Source: Thermoprotei archaeon (lineage in GTDB: Archaea; Thermoproteota; Thermoprotei; Thermofilales; B15-G2). Taken from it: a DNA stretch of 50,023 nt. Numbering within the stretch: the first letter of the stretch is position 1; every line of letters begins with the position of its first letter. Below the pieces are notes generated by a model. It saw only the letters and a list, made by a program, of their open reading frames with translations, had not been told where the DNA came from and ran no database searches. The stretch lies in assembly GCA_003650815.1 (NCBI GenBank), contig QMSB01000003.1, forward strand, positions 1-50,023, written 5' to 3'. The translations under genes and the position numbers were made by a program. This document shows positions 11,852 to 39,252 of the stretch, in pieces.

Positions 11852-12649
11852 GTGCTCAAATATGCAGCTAAAGTATTCTATGATGGCCGCTTAGGCGACT
11901 GGAGATATATGCAGAACAGGATAAAACGTGCACTATTAGCAAGTAAGGTGTCTTCTCCTCCATTTAAACTCCCTTTGGCATCTAGAACGGACAGCGGCGT
12001 ATGGTGTCTAAGCCAAGTAATCTCTTTTAATTCAAAGGTGAAGCTGAAGTCACTTCGTAGAATCAACGCCTATCTTCCTAGAGGAATAAGGCTTTACGCC
12101 CTAGCCGAGGTCTCTTCAGACTTTTCTCCTCGAAAAGCTCTCAAAAGAGTATATATTTACATAGTTCCTTATAGTGGAGAAAACTTAGACATTATGCGAA
12201 AAGCTGCTGAGCTTTTTATAGGCAAACATGATTTCTGGAACTTCTGCGTCGCTAAGAGAGAAGAAAGCACTGTGAGAGAAGTAACAAATATATTCGTCAG
12301 CGAAGCTGCGGAAACAATAATAATGATTTTCGAAGGACCCGGCTTTCTGAATAAAATGATAAGAAAAATTGCGTGGACTATATTGGCTGCAGGAAGAGGG
12401 GAAATAGACTTAGAGTTTATTCAAAATAGACTCGAGAGAAAGGTGGACTCTAAGGTTCCATCATTATCCCCTCAGGGACTTATCTTATATAGCATTGAAT
12501 ATCCTCAACCTATTAAATTTAAGTACGATAATTCAGCACTAACTGATATTAGAGAGTATTTAACTAAAGAGAAAAGAAATCTAGAAGTATTCTATGCGCT
12601 CACAAATCTCTCTCTACTCAAACTAAGCACTACTAGAAATTTTAAATAG
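11852..12649 (+). CDS. truA: tRNA pseudouridine(38-40) synthase TruA
   Basis: YDG, SRTDSGV (catalytic Asp), IGKHDFWNF, GFLNKMIRKI, GLILY. Confidence 0.85.
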   Translation: MLKYAAKVFYDGRLGDWRYMQNRIKRALLASKVSSPPFKLPLASRTDSGVWCLSQVISFNSKVKLKSLRRINAYLPRGIRLYALAEVSSDFSPRKALKRVYIYIVPYSGENLDIMRKAAELFIGKHDFWNFCVAKREESTVREVTNIFVSEAAETIIMIFEGPGFLNKMIRKIAWTILAAGRGEIDLEFIQNRLERKVDSKVPSLSPQGLILYSIEYPQPIKFKYDNSALTDIREYLTKEKRNLEVFYALTNLSLLKLSTTRNFK

Positions 12650-20297: not shown

Positions 20298-20876
20298 GTG
20301 GCCCTAGAGGAGAAGACTGTATATTTTGAGGAGTTCAAGGAGGAAGAAAACACTGAAGCTACTCTGAAGATAGCTAAGGAGTATGCATTGAAGTACAACA
20401 TAAAGAACATAGTAGTCGCCTCTACTAGAGGAAAAGTAGCTGAAAAGGCTCTCAAGTTCTTTGACCCAGCAGAATATAACTTAGTTATAGTAACTCACAC
20501 CAGCTGGTTTAGAGGAAAAATACGGCAGGAACTTGATGAAAATATTAAAAAGAAACTAATTGAAAGAGGAGCTCATATAGTTACTGCAGCTCATGCCTTT
20601 GGAGGAGTCTCAAGAAGTATTGAGAAAAAATATGGTGGAATAACTTTAGTGGGACTTGTAGCAAATGTCCTCCGTAGATTTTGTGAGGGAATGAAAGTAG
20701 CTGTAGAAATAACTTTAATGGCAACAGATGCTGGGTACTTTGCTCCAGGTGAAGAAGTTATAGCTATTGCTGGTACAGGCAGAGGCGCAGATACAGCTGT
20801 GATTTTAACTGCAGCGCCCTCTCACAAATTCTTTGATACAAAAATAAAGAAAATACTTGCTAAACCCATCTTTTAA
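20298..20876 (+). CDS. Pyruvate kinase C-terminal (alpha/beta) domain-like protein
   Basis: NTEATL, IVVASTRG, VTH, GMKVAVEI..MATDAG, AGTGRGADTA. Confidence 0.85.
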   Translation: MALEEKTVYFEEFKEEENTEATLKIAKEYALKYNIKNIVVASTRGKVAEKALKFFDPAEYNLVIVTHTSWFRGKIRQELDENIKKKLIERGAHIVTAAHAFGGVSRSIEKKYGGITLVGLVANVLRRFCEGMKVAVEITLMATDAGYFAPGEEVIAIAGTGRGADTAVILTAAPSHKFFDTKIKKILAKPIF

Positions 20877-20913
20877 GATAAGAATTTAAATTAGTTTTTT
20901 ACCTAAATTACTG

Positions 20914-20963
20914 GTGATGAGTACTCCCGGAAGTGAGTAGATGACCTCAACTTACCCGGCTGA
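20914..20963 (+). ncRNA. C/D box sRNA
   Basis: C GTGATGA 20914, D' GTGA 20933, C' TAGATGA 20938, D CTGA 20960. Confidence 0.85.
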
Positions 20964-20999
20964 CATCTTTCTATGTTAAGCTTACTTGTGTTCGAGCTA

Positions 21000-21255
21000 A
21001 ATTACCCGATGTTTCCCAAGCATCATCAGTAAATATCGGTAAAATCTCCATAGGAAAAGTAGGTTCAAGAGGCTCGTTTCGTCTGAATACATCAGTAAAG
21101 TACATCACTTTCCATTGATACTGATTAACGGCATCTATCATCGGTAAAATGTTTACTTCGGTAAAATTAATGTAATTTACTGATGTTTTTACTGATGTAA
21201 TGTCTTCATAAATTCATTAATTTATGACATAAAGCTACGCGAATTTTACCGAGAT
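21000..21255. repeat. Cluster of oriented CATCRGTAAA-type repeats with mini-ORB-like boxes, candidate replication origin
   Basis: Forward copies at 21024, 21034, 21090, 21139 and 21156; reverse copies at 21176, 21188 and 21243. TCCATAGGAAA at 21047-21057. AT-rich 21160-21235. Confidence 0.6.
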
Positions 21256-21327
21256 TTTTCTCAAGCAGTTTTCACTACTCATGCTTCGAAATACATTATA
21301 GTTTCCTTGCTAACATATTTACAGGAA

Positions 21328-23046
21328 ATGCTTGCTGTAATTATTGATGGCTATACAGATGAGCCTGCTGGGCTAGGCGTCCCTCCCTACTTAGACGTTT
21401 ACCCACGATACACTGCTGGTGCTATATGGACTTTGTATCCCGATGCTACGGTAAAGTATTTTACCGTAGATATTGCAAGGAAAAATCTAGATGCTCTCCA
21501 GAAAATATGTTCTAAAGCCACTTTACTAATTATAGTTGCTGGAGTATGTGTTCCTGGTAAGTACTTAGGAGGAGATCCTATTAGATTAGATGAGCTCATT
21601 AAGTGGAGCTCTATTCTTGGCGCTAAAATTAAGATACTTGGAGGCCCTGTCGCTAGATTTGGTTATGGAAGCGAGGGCGGTAAAATAGCTATTGAGCCTA
21701 AGTTTTTTGAGAACTACTATGATATTGTTGTTCGCGGAGACGTGGAAATAGTAGTTAGAGATCTCATATTGGAGAAATTTTCTGTTGAGAAAATAGATCC
21801 ATTTGCCCAGCGAGTAGACTACAGTGAAATAAGGGAGTTCGCCATAAGGGGTGCAGCAATAGCTTCTCAGCATCCATGCTTTGGTAAAAACCTTATTTGT
21901 GAGATAGAGACTTACCGAGGATGCCCCCGCTATGTTGTTGGCGGATGCTCGTTTTGCACTACTGTCAGATATGGGAGAGTAGTTTACAGAAATGTAGAAG
22001 ATATAGTGGCGGAGGTTAAGGCGCTACATGATATTGGTGTAAGACACTTCAGAATAGGGAGACAAGCTGACTTTTACACTTACATGGCTGTAGATACTGG
22101 TAAGACAGAGTTTCCTAAACCCTCGCCACAGGCTATTGAAAGACTTCTCCGAGGAATAAGAGTAAACGCTCCAATGATAGAGACTCTTCATATAGATAAT
22201 GTCAATCCGGGAACTGTTTACCATCATGAGAAAGAGTCTATCGAGATCACTAGGATCATTATGAAGTATCATACCCCTGGTGATGTGGCTGCCTTCGGTA
22301 TAGAGACAGCTGACCCTAGAGTTGTGAAACTGAATAACTTGAAGGTTATGCCTGAGGAAGCTTTTGAGGCTATTAAGATACTAAATAAGGTCGGGAGAGT
22401 AAGGGGATTGAATGGCTTACCAGAGATTCTTCCAGGAGTAAACTTTGTTCTGGGTCTCATTGGAGAAACTAAGGAGACTTACTACTTGAACTTAGAGTTT
22501 CTACGGAGAGTTTTGAGAGAAGGTTTACTATTGAGAAGGATTAACATAAGACAAGTTTTAGCGTTTCCCAATACTCCTATGTGGAAAATAGGTAATAGGA
22601 TCATAAGAAAACACAGAAAGTATTTTCAGTGGTTTAAGAGTAAAGTCAGGAGGGAAATAGATCAGCCTATGTTGATGAAGCTTGTTCCACTGGGTACTGT
22701 GCTGAGGAAGGCGTTTACTGAAAGTTATTATGGTAAAGCTACCTATGCTAGACAGCCCGGGACATATCCCCTGCTTCTCTACTGCCCTGAGAGACTTCCT
22801 CTTCATCGGTACATGGATTTTGCCGTAGTCGGCTATGGCTATAGGTCAGTTACTGTTGTTCCTTACCCGTTAGACGTTAATAGAGCTCCTCCTGTTCTTC
22901 TTGAGCTTGTTCCAGGGATAAGTCGGAAGAAAGCTTTTGAGATAAAGCTTAAGAGACCCTTTAAGTCTCTTAAGGAGGTAAGAGAAATAGTTGGCTCTGA
23001 GGAGCCTCTTAAGTACCTTAGTTTAGGCGATAGCAGTGAGGCTTAA
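21328..23046 (+). CDS. Radical SAM protein with a C-terminal helix-hairpin-helix (conserved archaeal family)
   Basis: IDGYTDEPAGLGVPPY, ETYRGC..GGCSFC, LHIDN, RRINIRQV, C-terminal VPGISRKKA; ORF track start 21307. Confidence 0.9.
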   Translation: MLAVIIDGYTDEPAGLGVPPYLDVYPRYTAGAIWTLYPDATVKYFTVDIARKNLDALQKICSKATLLIIVAGVCVPGKYLGGDPIRLDELIKWSSILGAKIKILGGPVARFGYGSEGGKIAIEPKFFENYYDIVVRGDVEIVVRDLILEKFSVEKIDPFAQRVDYSEIREFAIRGAAIASQHPCFGKNLICEIETYRGCPRYVVGGCSFCTTVRYGRVVYRNVEDIVAEVKALHDIGVRHFRIGRQADFYTYMAVDTGKTEFPKPSPQAIERLLRGIRVNAPMIETLHIDNVNPGTVYHHEKESIEITRIIMKYHTPGDVAAFGIETADPRVVKLNNLKVMPEEAFEAIKILNKVGRVRGLNGLPEILPGVNFVLGLIGETKETYYLNLEFLRRVLREGLLLRRINIRQVLAFPNTPMWKIGNRIIRKHRKYFQWFKSKVRREIDQPMLMKLVPLGTVLRKAFTESYYGKATYARQPGTYPLLLYCPERLPLHRYMDFAVVGYGYRSVTVVPYPLDVNRAPPVLLELVPGISRKKAFEIKLKRPFKSLKEVREIVGSEEPLKYLSLGDSSEA

Positions 23047-23887
23047 GGACTACTTCAAAGGAAAAATTAGTGATAATTTACTCAAGTACATTCCCTCAAG
23101 TTACGAGATAATTGGATCTAGGAGTAAGGCAGTGGCTATAGTTGAGATACCGTGTGAAGTTGAGCATCTGAAGTACGAGATTGCCGAGGCAATTGTGAAG
23201 ATAAATAAGCATGTAAAGACTGTTCTTAGGAAAAAGTCTGGTAGGCAGGGAGTGTTTCGCATAAGAGACTACGAAATTTTATGGGGAGACCCTGACACTG
23301 AGGTTGTTCACAAGGAATATGGGTATCTGATTAAGCTTGATCCTCGTAAAGTATACTTTTCGGCTAGAGAGGGCACGGAAAGAATGAGAATAGCTCGCCA
23401 GGTTAGGCCAGGAGAAGTAGTAATGTATATGTTTGCTGGTGTAGGTCCCTTTGCTATAGCGATAGCTAAGCACCAGCCTTTAGTGAGAAAAATAATTGCT
23501 GCCGAAATAAATCCCGACGCATACAGATATCTGCTAGAGAATATTAAGCTAAATAAACTCGAGAGTGTTGTTGAAGCTTATCTGGGGGATGTTAGGGAGA
23601 TTTGTCCCAAATGGTATGGCACTTGTGACCGAGTATTGATGCCCCTTCCTAAAGGCGCTCACACCTTCTTAGACGTCGCTCTTAGCTGTCTAAAGCCCGA
23701 AGGCGGAGTAGTCCACTTCTATCACTGGTCACACGAGAACACCCTTTTCCGAGACGCCGAGAAGATAGTGGGTGAGTGGTGTACGAGGCTTGGATACAAA
23801 TATAAAATTCTGTCAAAGAGAATTGTCTTACCTTATGCTCCGAGAGTATATAAAGTATGCCTAGACTTTTTTGCTATTAGAAATTAA
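23036..23887 (+). CDS. Trm5/Taw2(TYW2)-family tRNA-37 modifying SAM-dependent transferase
   Basis: SYEIIG, HKEYG..KLDPRKVYFSAR..ER, MFAGVGPF, EINPDA, RVLMPLP, YAP. Confidence 0.88.
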   Translation: MRLKDYFKGKISDNLLKYIPSSYEIIGSRSKAVAIVEIPCEVEHLKYEIAEAIVKINKHVKTVLRKKSGRQGVFRIRDYEILWGDPDTEVVHKEYGYLIKLDPRKVYFSAREGTERMRIARQVRPGEVVMYMFAGVGPFAIAIAKHQPLVRKIIAAEINPDAYRYLLENIKLNKLESVVEAYLGDVREICPKWYGTCDRVLMPLPKGAHTFLDVALSCLKPEGGVVHFYHWSHENTLFRDAEKIVGEWCTRLGYKYKILSKRIVLPYAPRVYKVCLDFFAIRN

Positions 23888-37675: not shown

Positions 37676-38665
37676 TTATAACTCTATTTTTACTCTGAGT
37701 TTAACCGCATGTCTTCTGCTAAGGTACACTAAGGTCTCTAGTATTTCTTCTTGGGATAGTCCTGTGCTTCGAGATATTTCATCTATGAGAGCATGTAGTG
37801 GAACTGTTTTTGAGCCTTTAGAGATTAGTGAGAGAACCGCCATTATTCTCGCATATTTTTTAGAGGAGGATTCTTCCATTATTTTCTCAAAGTACTCTAT
37901 TATTTCCTTTATTTGATTCTCTAAATCAGATACTTCAGCGAGATATACTCCGTTAGCTAGCTCAGCAGAAGCCTTTATTATATTACTTCTTATTACTCTT
38001 ATCCTCTCAAATCTTACTCTAGCTTCTTCGGCTTTCTCAAGTGATATAAGTGGCTTGATTTGATAGTAGAGCTTAGCGGCTGCTTCGCAAAGTTCTAGGA
38101 CTGTAGTTAGCCTCTTCTTGTAGTTCTGGTCAAACCTATATAGAAGGCACTTTATTTCTCTATAACTCTTTTTAAGTTCATCTGCTAAAGCATAGGGATC
38201 CGGGATATCAGGATTTTGTAGTATGCGCTGACTTTTCCTCTCTAACCGCATTAGATTAGAGTATATATTTTCATCTAGTTTTCTTACTACCTCCTTGTTT
38301 TTATCAATTTTGCTTAATATTCTTTTTAACTCTTTTTCAGCCTCTAGACATTCCTCAAGTCCTTTAGCGTATCTAGTTAGTAGTTCTAAGTAGCTCCTTA
38401 ACTTTGTCCCGTACTCTTCTAGGTTTTTCTCCAAATTCCGAGAAATCCCATAGACTGGTGGAGGCTGTGGGGGAGTGTTCGACTTGATAAAGTTTTCGAA
38501 AAGTGGTTTTACTACAGAATCTTTATTGCTCGAGTATCTCTCGTTAAGCAGATTGATTATGCTCTCTACTTGTTTCCTAAGCTCTGATACTTCATTTACT
38601 TTTCTGGACAGTTCGTTTAAAAGCTGATCTAGGGTTTTCTCCTTAGTTACTACTCTAAGTTTCAC
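37676..38665 (-). CDS. Coiled-coil/helical-bundle protein with a C-terminal winged-helix-like domain
   Basis: Long amphipathic helices, a PPQPPP linker, and the C-terminus LHALIDEISRSTGLSQEEILETLVYLSRRHAVKLRV. Confidence 0.7.
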   Translation of the reverse strand: MKLRVVTKEKTLDQLLNELSRKVNEVSELRKQVESIINLLNERYSSNKDSVVKPLFENFIKSNTPPQPPPVYGISRNLEKNLEEYGTKLRSYLELLTRYAKGLEECLEAEKELKRILSKIDKNKEVVRKLDENIYSNLMRLERKSQRILQNPDIPDPYALADELKKSYREIKCLLYRFDQNYKKRLTTVLELCEAAAKLYYQIKPLISLEKAEEARVRFERIRVIRSNIIKASAELANGVYLAEVSDLENQIKEIIEYFEKIMEESSSKKYARIMAVLSLISKGSKTVPLHALIDEISRSTGLSQEEILETLVYLSRRHAVKLRVKIEL

Positions 38666-38706
38666 ACTGTCTACTTTGAGTAGAGAGCTATTTTAAGTAA
38701 CGCTTA

Positions 38707-39252
38707 CTATACTGTCGTGATTTCAGGATATATTGTGGTGAATCTGTTTCCTCCCACATGGTATATTAGTTTAACTTTGCTGAGATTCCATGCTTTTTCG
38801 AAAAGATCTTCGTTGACATAAGCTTCCACTACTTCTCCTACGAAAAGCACGTGGTCTCCTGTCTTAAGCTCTGCTCTAACTACACATTCAAGATTCGCTA
38901 CACAGTCTTCGATTAGTGGCGCTTTAATTTTTCTGGATTTCATTAACTTGAAGCCATATTTAGCTATTTTATCGACTTCCTCTCCACTTTCTCTTCCACA
39001 TGCAAATACTTTTTCTAAAAGACTCCAGTCAGGTATGTTTACTCCAAAGTCTCCAGTTTCTTTTACAAGCTTATAGGTATATCTCTCAGGAGCTATACTG
39101 ACTGCGATCATAGGGGGCGAAAAGCTTGTAGGCATACACCAGGCGAAAGTAGCTATATTAACTTTACCGTCTTTGCTCGCAGAGGTTACAAGTACTGTCA
39201 ATTTTGGATGAAGCAATCTATATGCAAATGCTTTGCTAACGGTTTTCTTCAT
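38707..39252 (-). CDS. Flavin reductase family protein
   Basis: YRLLHP..TVLVTS, SFSPP, RYT, FGVNIP, CGRESG...DK, LEC, GDHVLFVGEV; ORF track start 39297. Confidence 0.9.
   Translation of the reverse strand: MKKTVSKAFAYRLLHPKLTVLVTSASKDGKVNIATFAWCMPTSFSPPMIAVSIAPERYTYKLVKETGDFGVNIPDWSLLEKVFACGRESGEEVDKIAKYGFKLMKSRKIKAPLIEDCVANLECVVRAELKTGDHVLFVGEVVEAYVNEDLFEKAWNLSKVKLIYHVGGNRFTTIYPEITTV

Follow-up and report, generated by a model that had tools for sequence, protein, structure and literature searches.

The stretch analysed here (the window) comprises 50,023 nt of contig QMSB01000003.1 of a heat-loving Thermoprotei archaeon and corresponds to contig C3 of its own assembly (G000), a metagenome-assembled genome of 1.99 Mb in 175 contigs that is 85% complete. 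Between the gene for a 192-aa protein with a pyruvate-kinase C-terminal-like (PK_C-like) domain (20298–20876, +) and the gene for a 572-aa B12-binding/radical-SAM protein, likewise on the + strand, lies a gap (20877–21327) in which eight copies of the word TCRGTAAA, five in forward and three in reverse orientation, are clustered within 21026–21252. This array of boxes, designated s1 to s8, is a real, selectively kept cis-element and is unique in the genome. An initial annotation, made from the letters of the sequence alone, had already regarded the region as origin-like.

As that annotation had claimed, the gap is the largest non-coding one of the window; a seemingly larger gap at 38666–39232 was dismissed, as a 196-aa flavin-reductase gene fills that span. 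The true start of the radical-SAM gene is the ATG at 21328, and tblastn alignment of its product with the counterpart in another species of the genus (G001, see below) begins at residue 7 of the TTG-started frame. An unannotated gene for a C/D box small RNA (sRNA), which the initial annotation had overlooked, accounts for 56 nt of the gap (20910–20965, +), and the non-coding DNA without explanation amounts to ∼330 nt (20966–21293). The sequence of the gap was recovered in contigs of four other public runs with a single difference, at position 21006, and is therefore not an assembly artefact; these contigs were so nearly identical to the window that population variation added no footprinting power. 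The public runs listed as carrying this DNA include none of RNA.

Anatomy and uniqueness of the box array

The features of the array and of its immediate surroundings are listed below, some of them being named after the origin recognition box (ORB) of archaeal replication origins.

21024–21033 and 21090–21099, +: boxes s1 and s3, CATCAGTAAA; s3 in the window lineage only
21034–21045, +: box s2, TATCGGTAAAAT; its core starts 10 bp from the core start of s1
21139–21150, +: box s4, CATCGGTAAAAT
21156–21167, +: box s5, CTTCGGTAAAAT
21176–21185 and 21188–21197, −: boxes s6 and s7, TTTACTGATG
21243–21253, −: box s8, ATTTTACCGAG, window lineage only
21045–21067, +: ORB-core-like box, TCTCCATAGGAAAAGTAGGTTCA, directly adjoining s2
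21047–21057: mini-ORB-like box of the initial annotation, TCCATAGGAAA
21109–21118: inverted variant of the initial annotation, TTTCCATTGA
21000–21014: degenerate ninth copy of the box, AATTACCCGATGTTT, 80% identical to 21174–21188 (direct repeat)
21160–21235: A+T-rich tract, 77.6% A+T, overlapping and following the facing boxes
21206–21214 and 21219–21227: perfect inverted repeat within the A+T-rich tract
21254–21263, +: conserved block ATTTTTCTCA (ATTTTTCYCA in the alignment), T5 tract 31–40 nt 5′ of the TATA box
21294–21300, +: TATA-like CATTATA (CATTAYA across three sequences), 34 nt before the ATG at 21328

Every motif coordinate of the initial annotation proved exact, and an independent repeat finder recovered the same repeat families. 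The core that is invariant in all eight copies is TCRGTAAA, whereas the fuller conserved box reads YWTCRGTAAA(AT). Cores start at 21026, 21036, 21092, 21141 and 21158 on the + strand and at 21176, 21188 and 21245 on the − strand, so that their spacing is irregular (10, 56, 49, 17, 18, 12 and 57 nt) and their orientation mixed. Two blocks can be distinguished. In block 1, the two forward boxes s1 and s2 adjoin the ORB-core-like box, and in block 2 (21139–21197) two forward boxes face two reverse boxes. The orientation flip and the A+T-rich tract in non-coding DNA were thus as the initial annotation had described them, and the tract ranks in the top 0.9% of the genome's 76-bp windows for A+T content. 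Boxes s1 and s7, with 154 nt between them, are inverted repeats of each other without a mismatch over 10 bp, and s3 lies in a 26-nt segment that repeats the s6 region in inverted orientation with 85% identity (I1: 21086–21111/21164–21189). The block at 21254–21263, downstream of the array, may serve either as a terminator or insulator or as an upstream element of the promoter.

The word is strongly enriched in the window, with 17 copies of TCRGTAAA as compared with 4.09 ± 1.83 in 100 shuffles (maximum 9; 0 of 100 reached 17). The genome contains 257 copies, eight of which fall within 21026–21252, and the same interval holds five of the 13 genomic copies of CATCRGTAAA and four of the nine of TCGGTAAAAT. 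Outside the array, CATCRGTAAA occurs eight times, against ∼11.6 copies expected from base composition. At least three cores within 300 bp were found nowhere else in the 175 contigs. A scan of the genome with a weight matrix gave nine matches at C3:21000–21243 and four at the runner-up locus, and the direct-pair pattern was present only at the array, both in G000 (all three places) and in G001 (one place). The few discrete clusters in the genome that the initial annotation had expected for origins were therefore not found, the array being the sole cluster.

Clusters of repeated words are few in this genome altogether. An 8-mer occurring at least four times within 250 bp was found at only 14 loci, five of them intergenic as judged by reading. 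Intergenic arrays of a private 8-mer lie at C83:640–900 (four copies of GACAATAT) and at C99:4870–5080 (four copies of TAGTTTAA, in palindromic pairs), and both may be local operators. At C164:248–600 (locus L235), at least six units carrying GTCTCGTAT and GTTTTTCA boxes are repeated in tandem every 36 nt, in DNA poor in open reading frames (ORFs) on a 3.3-kb contig; they may belong to a small replicon, as iteron-like repeats or as repeats of another type. The contig ends at C61:79 and C68:36 share the same ∼30-nt sequence with TCGGTAAAAT, in opposite orientation, which suggests a repeat that broke the assembly.

Conservation within the genus

In order to assess constraint, the window was aligned with the corresponding regions of G001, the genome of one other species of the genus (99% complete), and of a metagenome contig (L121); the radical-SAM proteins of the three are 81–83% identical. 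The gene order phosphoribosyltransferase, PK_C-like protein, sRNA, gap and radical-SAM protein is kept in G001, with proteins 81–85% identical, and also on L121, whose radical-SAM protein is 81% identical. Conservation in relatives, which the initial annotation had proposed to look for, was indeed present: six of the eight boxes (s1, s2, s4, s5, s6 and s7), the ORB-core-like box (TCTCCAT..GAAA....GGTT, directly after s2) and the spacing are kept, while the spacers have diverged. Also kept in all three sequences are the block ATTTTTCYCA and the TATA-like CATTAYA. In the six conserved cores, 41 of 48 columns are invariant as compared with 44 of 121 in the rest of 21020–21200 (Fisher p = 6e-9), a test that is based on three sequences only, with the cores defined on one of them and the alignment anchored on the cores. 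By box, the invariant core columns number seven of eight in s1, s2 and s6, six of eight in s4 and s5, and eight of eight in s7, but only three of eight in s3 and in s8; at s8, G001 and L121 carry a different sequence. Invariance was similarly high in the ORB-like core (10/12 columns), the T-rich block (9/10), the radical-SAM TATA box (6/7) and the sRNA gene (47/56). Overall identity in the alignment was 72–87% in the blocks versus 53–64% in the spacer.

The distances are conserved as well. Whereas the rest of the gap contains indels of 49, 11 and 9 nt, s2 and s4 are separated by 105, 104 and 104 nt in the three sequences, and the distances within block 2 are equal within 1 nt. The 49-nt indel is an insertion at 20968–21016 that is restricted to the window lineage, being absent from G001 and L121, and holds the degenerate ninth box. 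The window lineage has thus gained boxes by local duplication, the s6 region having been copied in inverted orientation at s3 and in direct orientation at 21000–21014. The A+T-rich DNA behaves differently from the boxes: the tract does not keep its position from one of the three sequences to another, nor is the palindrome conserved. Between the two blocks, where the spacer of the window is 61% A+T, G001 has 40 bp with 95% A+T.

Outside the genus the array was not encountered. Exact matches to the s6–s7 pair among 120 genomes of the class were confined to G000 and G001; with two mismatches allowed, 17 places matched as compared with 10 for a reversed-pattern control, and none of the 10 such loci that were inspected has a box cluster. 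Viral contigs contained no array either, seven matched loci holding just the two copies demanded by the pattern, and gave no match to the composite of s2 and the ORB-like box. The upstream regions of radical-SAM genes outside the genus have zero or one core (28 loci, two of them partial), and the ORF-free gap upstream of these orthologues is at most 70 nt in 20 of 27. A conserved operator of the radical-SAM gene outside the genus was accordingly rejected.

Neighbouring features and a candidate canonical origin

The sRNA gene at 20910–20965 consists of the following elements, its TATA-like box being read from the sequence.

20885–20891, +: TATA-like TTTAAAT, ∼23 nt upstream of the C box
20914–20920, +: C box
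20933–20936, +: D′-like box, GTGA
20938–20944, +: C′-like box
20960–20963, +: D box, CTGA

The TATA-like box at 20885–20891 is likely the promoter of the sRNA gene. The best Rfam match was to sR7 (26.5 bits, E = 5e-4). Since the C, D′, C′ and D boxes occur in order and this score is below the gathering score of 37, we consider the gene a C/D sRNA by its anatomy and not a member of sR7. It is the only part of the gap that is conserved across the order, with 78–92% identity over ∼50 nt in eight of 40 other genomes. The possibility that the array travels with the sRNA gene was discarded, as the flanks of the sRNA in other genomes are without the array; in the relatives' loci L003 and L005–L008 the sRNA lies in ORF-free spans of 68–429 nt that have no repeated 7-mers (it was not located in L004). 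The sRNA was also the sole loose Rfam match below an E-value of 1, and a known RNA family for the array was rejected. No tRNA or tmRNA gene was detected in the window.

A coding function of the gap, or its origin from a decayed ORF, which the initial annotation had named as an alternative, was rejected. Reading frames on both strands are not conserved and are broken in G001 and L121. An 80-aa antisense stop-to-stop frame (20971–21213) is not kept in the relatives, being reduced to pieces of 21–23 aa in G001 and lost in L121; it had no Pfam match and no homologue in 119 other genomes of the class.

The neighbourhood is of a housekeeping kind, with genes for PCNA, TruA, DeoC, a macro-domain protein, a PUA protein, Trm5b, AOR, GAPOR, RadA and RNase HII. 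From 21328 onwards, a string of genes encodes the radical-SAM protein, Trm5b, a ferredoxin and AOR. The closest named matches of the radical-SAM protein were to ‘uncultured Thermoprotei archaeon’ (83%) and to Vulcanisaeta, Thermofilaceae and Pyrobaculum (53–60%). Within 21328–23887, its gene overlaps the start of the Trm5b/Taw-like tRNA methyltransferase gene by 11 nt, which may indicate a functional link of the protein to tRNA modification, and its C-terminus gave a faint helix-hairpin-helix match under the Pfam cut-off. A 329-aa protein encoded at 37676–38665 (−) had no Pfam match and, by eye, may comprise a long coiled-coil and a C-terminal winged-helix-like end. The absence of cdc6 nearby was confirmed, as profile searches revealed no Cdc6/Orc1 gene in the 50-kb window (no Cdc6_C or TIGR02928 match); with the Pfam and NCBIfam profiles, neither a Rep-like gene (there being no WhiP profile among the libraries) nor a ParA/SegA-like gene was recognized in it. 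GC skew in the window seems to track gene strand, as judged by reading without a statistical test, and was hence taken as uninformative on an origin.

Elsewhere in the same assembly, a candidate for a canonical origin was found at C20:11687–12650 (L212:480–1460). These ∼960 bp are mostly non-coding and contain three strong ORBs, each with a G-string.

C20, ∼11909–11936, −: ORB
C20, 12076–12100, +: ORB
C20, 12444–12470, −: ORB

The first two stand in inverted orientation on either side of 124 bp with 77% A+T, and the cluster is conserved in G001 on C11 (16.7–17.7 kb), with conserved boxes and diverged spacers. From near C20:12150 onwards, the region is highly conserved between G000 and G001, and this stretch, judging from the alignment, may be a small ORF. 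Two Orc1/Cdc6 genes are present in G001 (C9:68954–70024, L228; C8:68872–69969, L229) and one complete gene in G000 (C8:34850–36070), along with weak partial matches on C143 and C58. The two genes of G001 adjoin neither the ORB cluster nor the array; the flanks of the Orc1/Cdc6 genes contain no motif cluster and no ORB core.

A matrix built from the six true ORBs of G000 and G001, and overfitted with only six training sites, scored the three ORBs of G000 at 30.7–35.7 bits and the ORB-like box of the window at 6.5 bits, so that, measured against the ORBs of its own genus, this box can be no more than a degenerate ORB. It ranked 502nd among 596 genomic matches of at least 6 bits, and its core CTCCANNGGAAA occurs in 11 copies in the genome. 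A match of 27.7 bits at C46:5308 was treated as a chance occurrence because it lies inside a 576-aa ORF. GGTT stands at the same offset of the ORB-like box in G001 and L121, and a GG occupies the place that the G-string has in an ORB. Hence, the mini-ORB-like boxes of the initial annotation held up in part: one of them is a conserved ORB-core match, albeit with a low score, while G001 and L121 do not share the inverted variant at 21109.

Interpretation and comparison with known systems

The occurrence of boxes on both strands fits recognition of duplex DNA, and six to eight constrained boxes, found at a single locus and evenly kept in their spacing among relatives, suggest that several proteins assemble on this DNA for a dedicated purpose. 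The array probably consists of binding sites for a protein on duplex DNA. The best single reading of its role, which we put forward tentatively, is that of a secondary replication origin peculiar to the genus. The boxes would be bound by a sequence-specific protein whose gene lies elsewhere, and several copies of this protein would assemble on the two blocks; this factor, alone or together with Orc1/Cdc6 on the degenerate ORB-like box, would open the adjacent A+T-rich DNA and recruit MCM. Such a mechanism would have its parallel in known archaeal origins, whose unwinding region is bordered by arrays of short oriented repeats. Points that count for an origin are the number of repeats, the orientation flip, the A+T-rich DNA, whose content of 77.6% in the tract compares with 77% in the unwinding region on C20, and the conserved ORB-core-like box adjoining the second box. 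The proposal of an origin in the initial annotation can thus be followed in part, as the unique conserved array, the flip, the A+T tract and the ORB-core box speak in its favour, whereas the ORB score is weak and the position of the tract is not conserved.

Several further observations weigh against an origin. The genes flanking the array are on the same strand. A consistent unwinding tract between facing boxes is lacking; the last forward box and the first reverse box of block 2 are only 8 bp apart, the spacer between the blocks is 61% A+T in the window, and the tract shifts among the three sequences. The ORB-like box, besides its low score and rank, has no full G-string and no conserved inverted partner, so that one box is present where an origin would show at least two inverted ORB or mini-ORB elements. 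The array is known from one genus and three sequences only. No initiator gene lies beside it or in the window, and the second Orc1/Cdc6 paralogue of G001, to judge from work on Sulfolobus Orc1-2, may be a regulator and not an initiator. Each Sulfolobus origin is described as dependent on its neighbouring initiator (PMC3607249). The canonical ORB cluster of this genus, however, is also without an adjacent Orc1/Cdc6 gene, which weakens the main argument against an orphan origin.

Among other explanations, the array might be an upstream regulatory region, with operators of a factor encoded elsewhere from which a looped or wrapped complex controls the gene string starting at 21328. It is situated directly upstream of the conserved TATA box (6/7 columns) and T-rich block, nested facing repeats such as those of block 2 are typical of dimeric regulators, and the other private 8-mer arrays (C83:666, C99:4891) are intergenic and maybe operators. 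Archaeal regulators usually act at or beside the TFB-recognition element (BRE) and TATA box, whereas the conserved boxes lie ∼100–270 bp upstream of the TATA box, the last one ending at 21197. Neither a regulon, CATCRGTAAA being at background frequency outside the array, nor an adjacent regulator gene (Pfam, NCBIfam) was found, and the orthologues outside the genus have short upstream gaps with zero or one box. The combination expected of operators, i.e. sites adjoining BRE/TATA with an adjacent regulator or with the motif at other promoters, was not observed, and we consider regulation unlikely. A non-coding RNA, transcribed as a trailer of the C/D sRNA or as antisense, in which the repeats act via hairpins or protein-binding motifs, appears somewhat less probable still. 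Forward and reverse copies can pair, so that folds of single sequences are more stable than those of shuffled ones (z = −2.47, + strand; −3.46, − strand); the region follows the sRNA gene by ∼12 nt in G001 and L121, and T-tracts and TATA-like words are present. The consensus fold of the three sequences, however, gave covariation terms of +0.9 and −0.77 kcal/mol, i.e. no support, although three sequences provide little power. Moreover, the strongest pairing in the window, that of s3 with s6, relies on a box missing from the relatives, all Rfam matches beyond the sRNA had E > 1 at loose thresholds, with none at gathering scores in the window, and duplex recognition explains boxes in both orientations more simply.

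A centromere-like or organizing site, where a partition or nucleoid protein of the SegB/ParB or ribbon-helix-helix type would be loaded at this one locus, would agree with the unique locus, the clustered short repeats of mixed orientation and their conservation in the genus, and its trans-acting factor could be encoded elsewhere. Partition sites usually adjoin their genes, and the searches beside the array gave neither a ParA/SegA-type gene nor one for a small DNA-binding partner; the repeats are also spaced apart rather than contiguous, and we judge this explanation improbable. The least credible is that the array is a relic of a mobile element, namely the ends of a non-autonomous transposon with inward-facing transposase-binding repeats, fixed in the ancestor of the genus and now functionless. 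The placing of the forward copies to the left of the reverse ones, the perfect s1/s7 pair, and the restriction to one genus at a gene-order breakpoint are all compatible with it. The element is, however, present in a single copy in G000 and in G001, no target-site duplication was seen at its ends, and viral contigs are without matching clusters, so that the set of terminal inverted repeats, target-site duplication and several copies typical of a miniature inverted-repeat transposable element was not found. Boxes as constrained as the sRNA, with decaying spacers between them, are not expected of a dead element, which makes this relic very improbable.

To return to the secondary origin, PMC4010727 and PMC3607249 portray archaeal origins as A+T-rich regions with ORB repeats on their flanks, most often beside cdc6 or whiP. 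According to PMC4009838, oriC1 alone of the four mapped origins of Pyrobaculum calidifontis is defined at the sequence level, and bioRxiv 10.1101/2021.04.30.439615 gives the Thermofilum origins as Ori-Finder predictions. In Thermoproteales-like archaea, a sequence-level definition is known for the Orc1-adjacent origin only. Sulfolobus origins also carry a motif termed ‘ucm’, which has a binding protein, UBP (PMC12141716). In a limited search of full-text literature, which is not proof of absence, we found no origin or other element built on the TCRGTAAA box. A little more doubtfully than an origin as such, the array may represent a kind of crenarchaeal origin not seen previously, with the new word TCRGTAAA, two blocks ten helical turns apart, a degenerate ORB and a non-adjacent initiator or accessory factor. 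If true, it would provide the first sequence-level picture of the orphan secondary origins that in this branch have been seen only as marker-frequency peaks. Its compactness, conservation and uniqueness, together with the clarity of its repeated word, make the array a concrete and testable candidate for such an origin, in an uncultured host and with three sequences as its only carriers. Were its role one in regulation or segregation, it would remain, among archaea, an array of unusual richness for a single target.

Of the systems with which the array can be compared, archaeal operator arrays, possibly including C83:666 and C99:4891, share short private direct and inverted repeats in an intergenic position upstream of a promoter, but the present array has six to eight copies, lies much further from the TATA box and has no adjacent regulator, and orthologues of its target gene elsewhere are without such a region. 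Like the iteron replicators of plasmid Rep proteins and of WhiP at Sulfolobus oriC3, it has a private repeated word at a single locus, which implies a dedicated binding protein. It differs from them by irregular spacing and mixed orientation, whereas iterons are regularly phased direct repeats of one orientation beside a rep gene, and no rep- or whiP-like gene was found beside it with the profile libraries used, which included no WhiP profile. The WhiP repeats, according to PMC3607249, are A+T-rich and lie inside the whiP gene.

The comparison with ORB origins (Sulfolobus oriC1 and oriC2, Pyrococcus oriC and C20:11909–12470) shows differences in the word TCRGTAAA, which is unrelated to the ORB, in the ORB-like box without a G-string and in the want of a clear unwinding tract between facing repeats in the window. 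It resembles these origins in its 200–300 bp of non-coding DNA, its oriented short repeats with a flip, a similar A+T tract, conserved boxes with diverged spacers and one ORB-core match. At Sulfolobus oriC2, Dueber et al. are said to have described in 2007 a composite site in which a mini-ORB stands beside an Orc1-3 site (Orc1-1/Orc1-3). Both Orc1 proteins bind oriC2 according to PMC3607249. In the genus of the array, one full Orc1/Cdc6 gene is present in the assembly of G000 and two in G001. The array is similar to oriC2 in that its ORB-core-like box adjoins a different box, s2, and the pair is kept in all three sequences.

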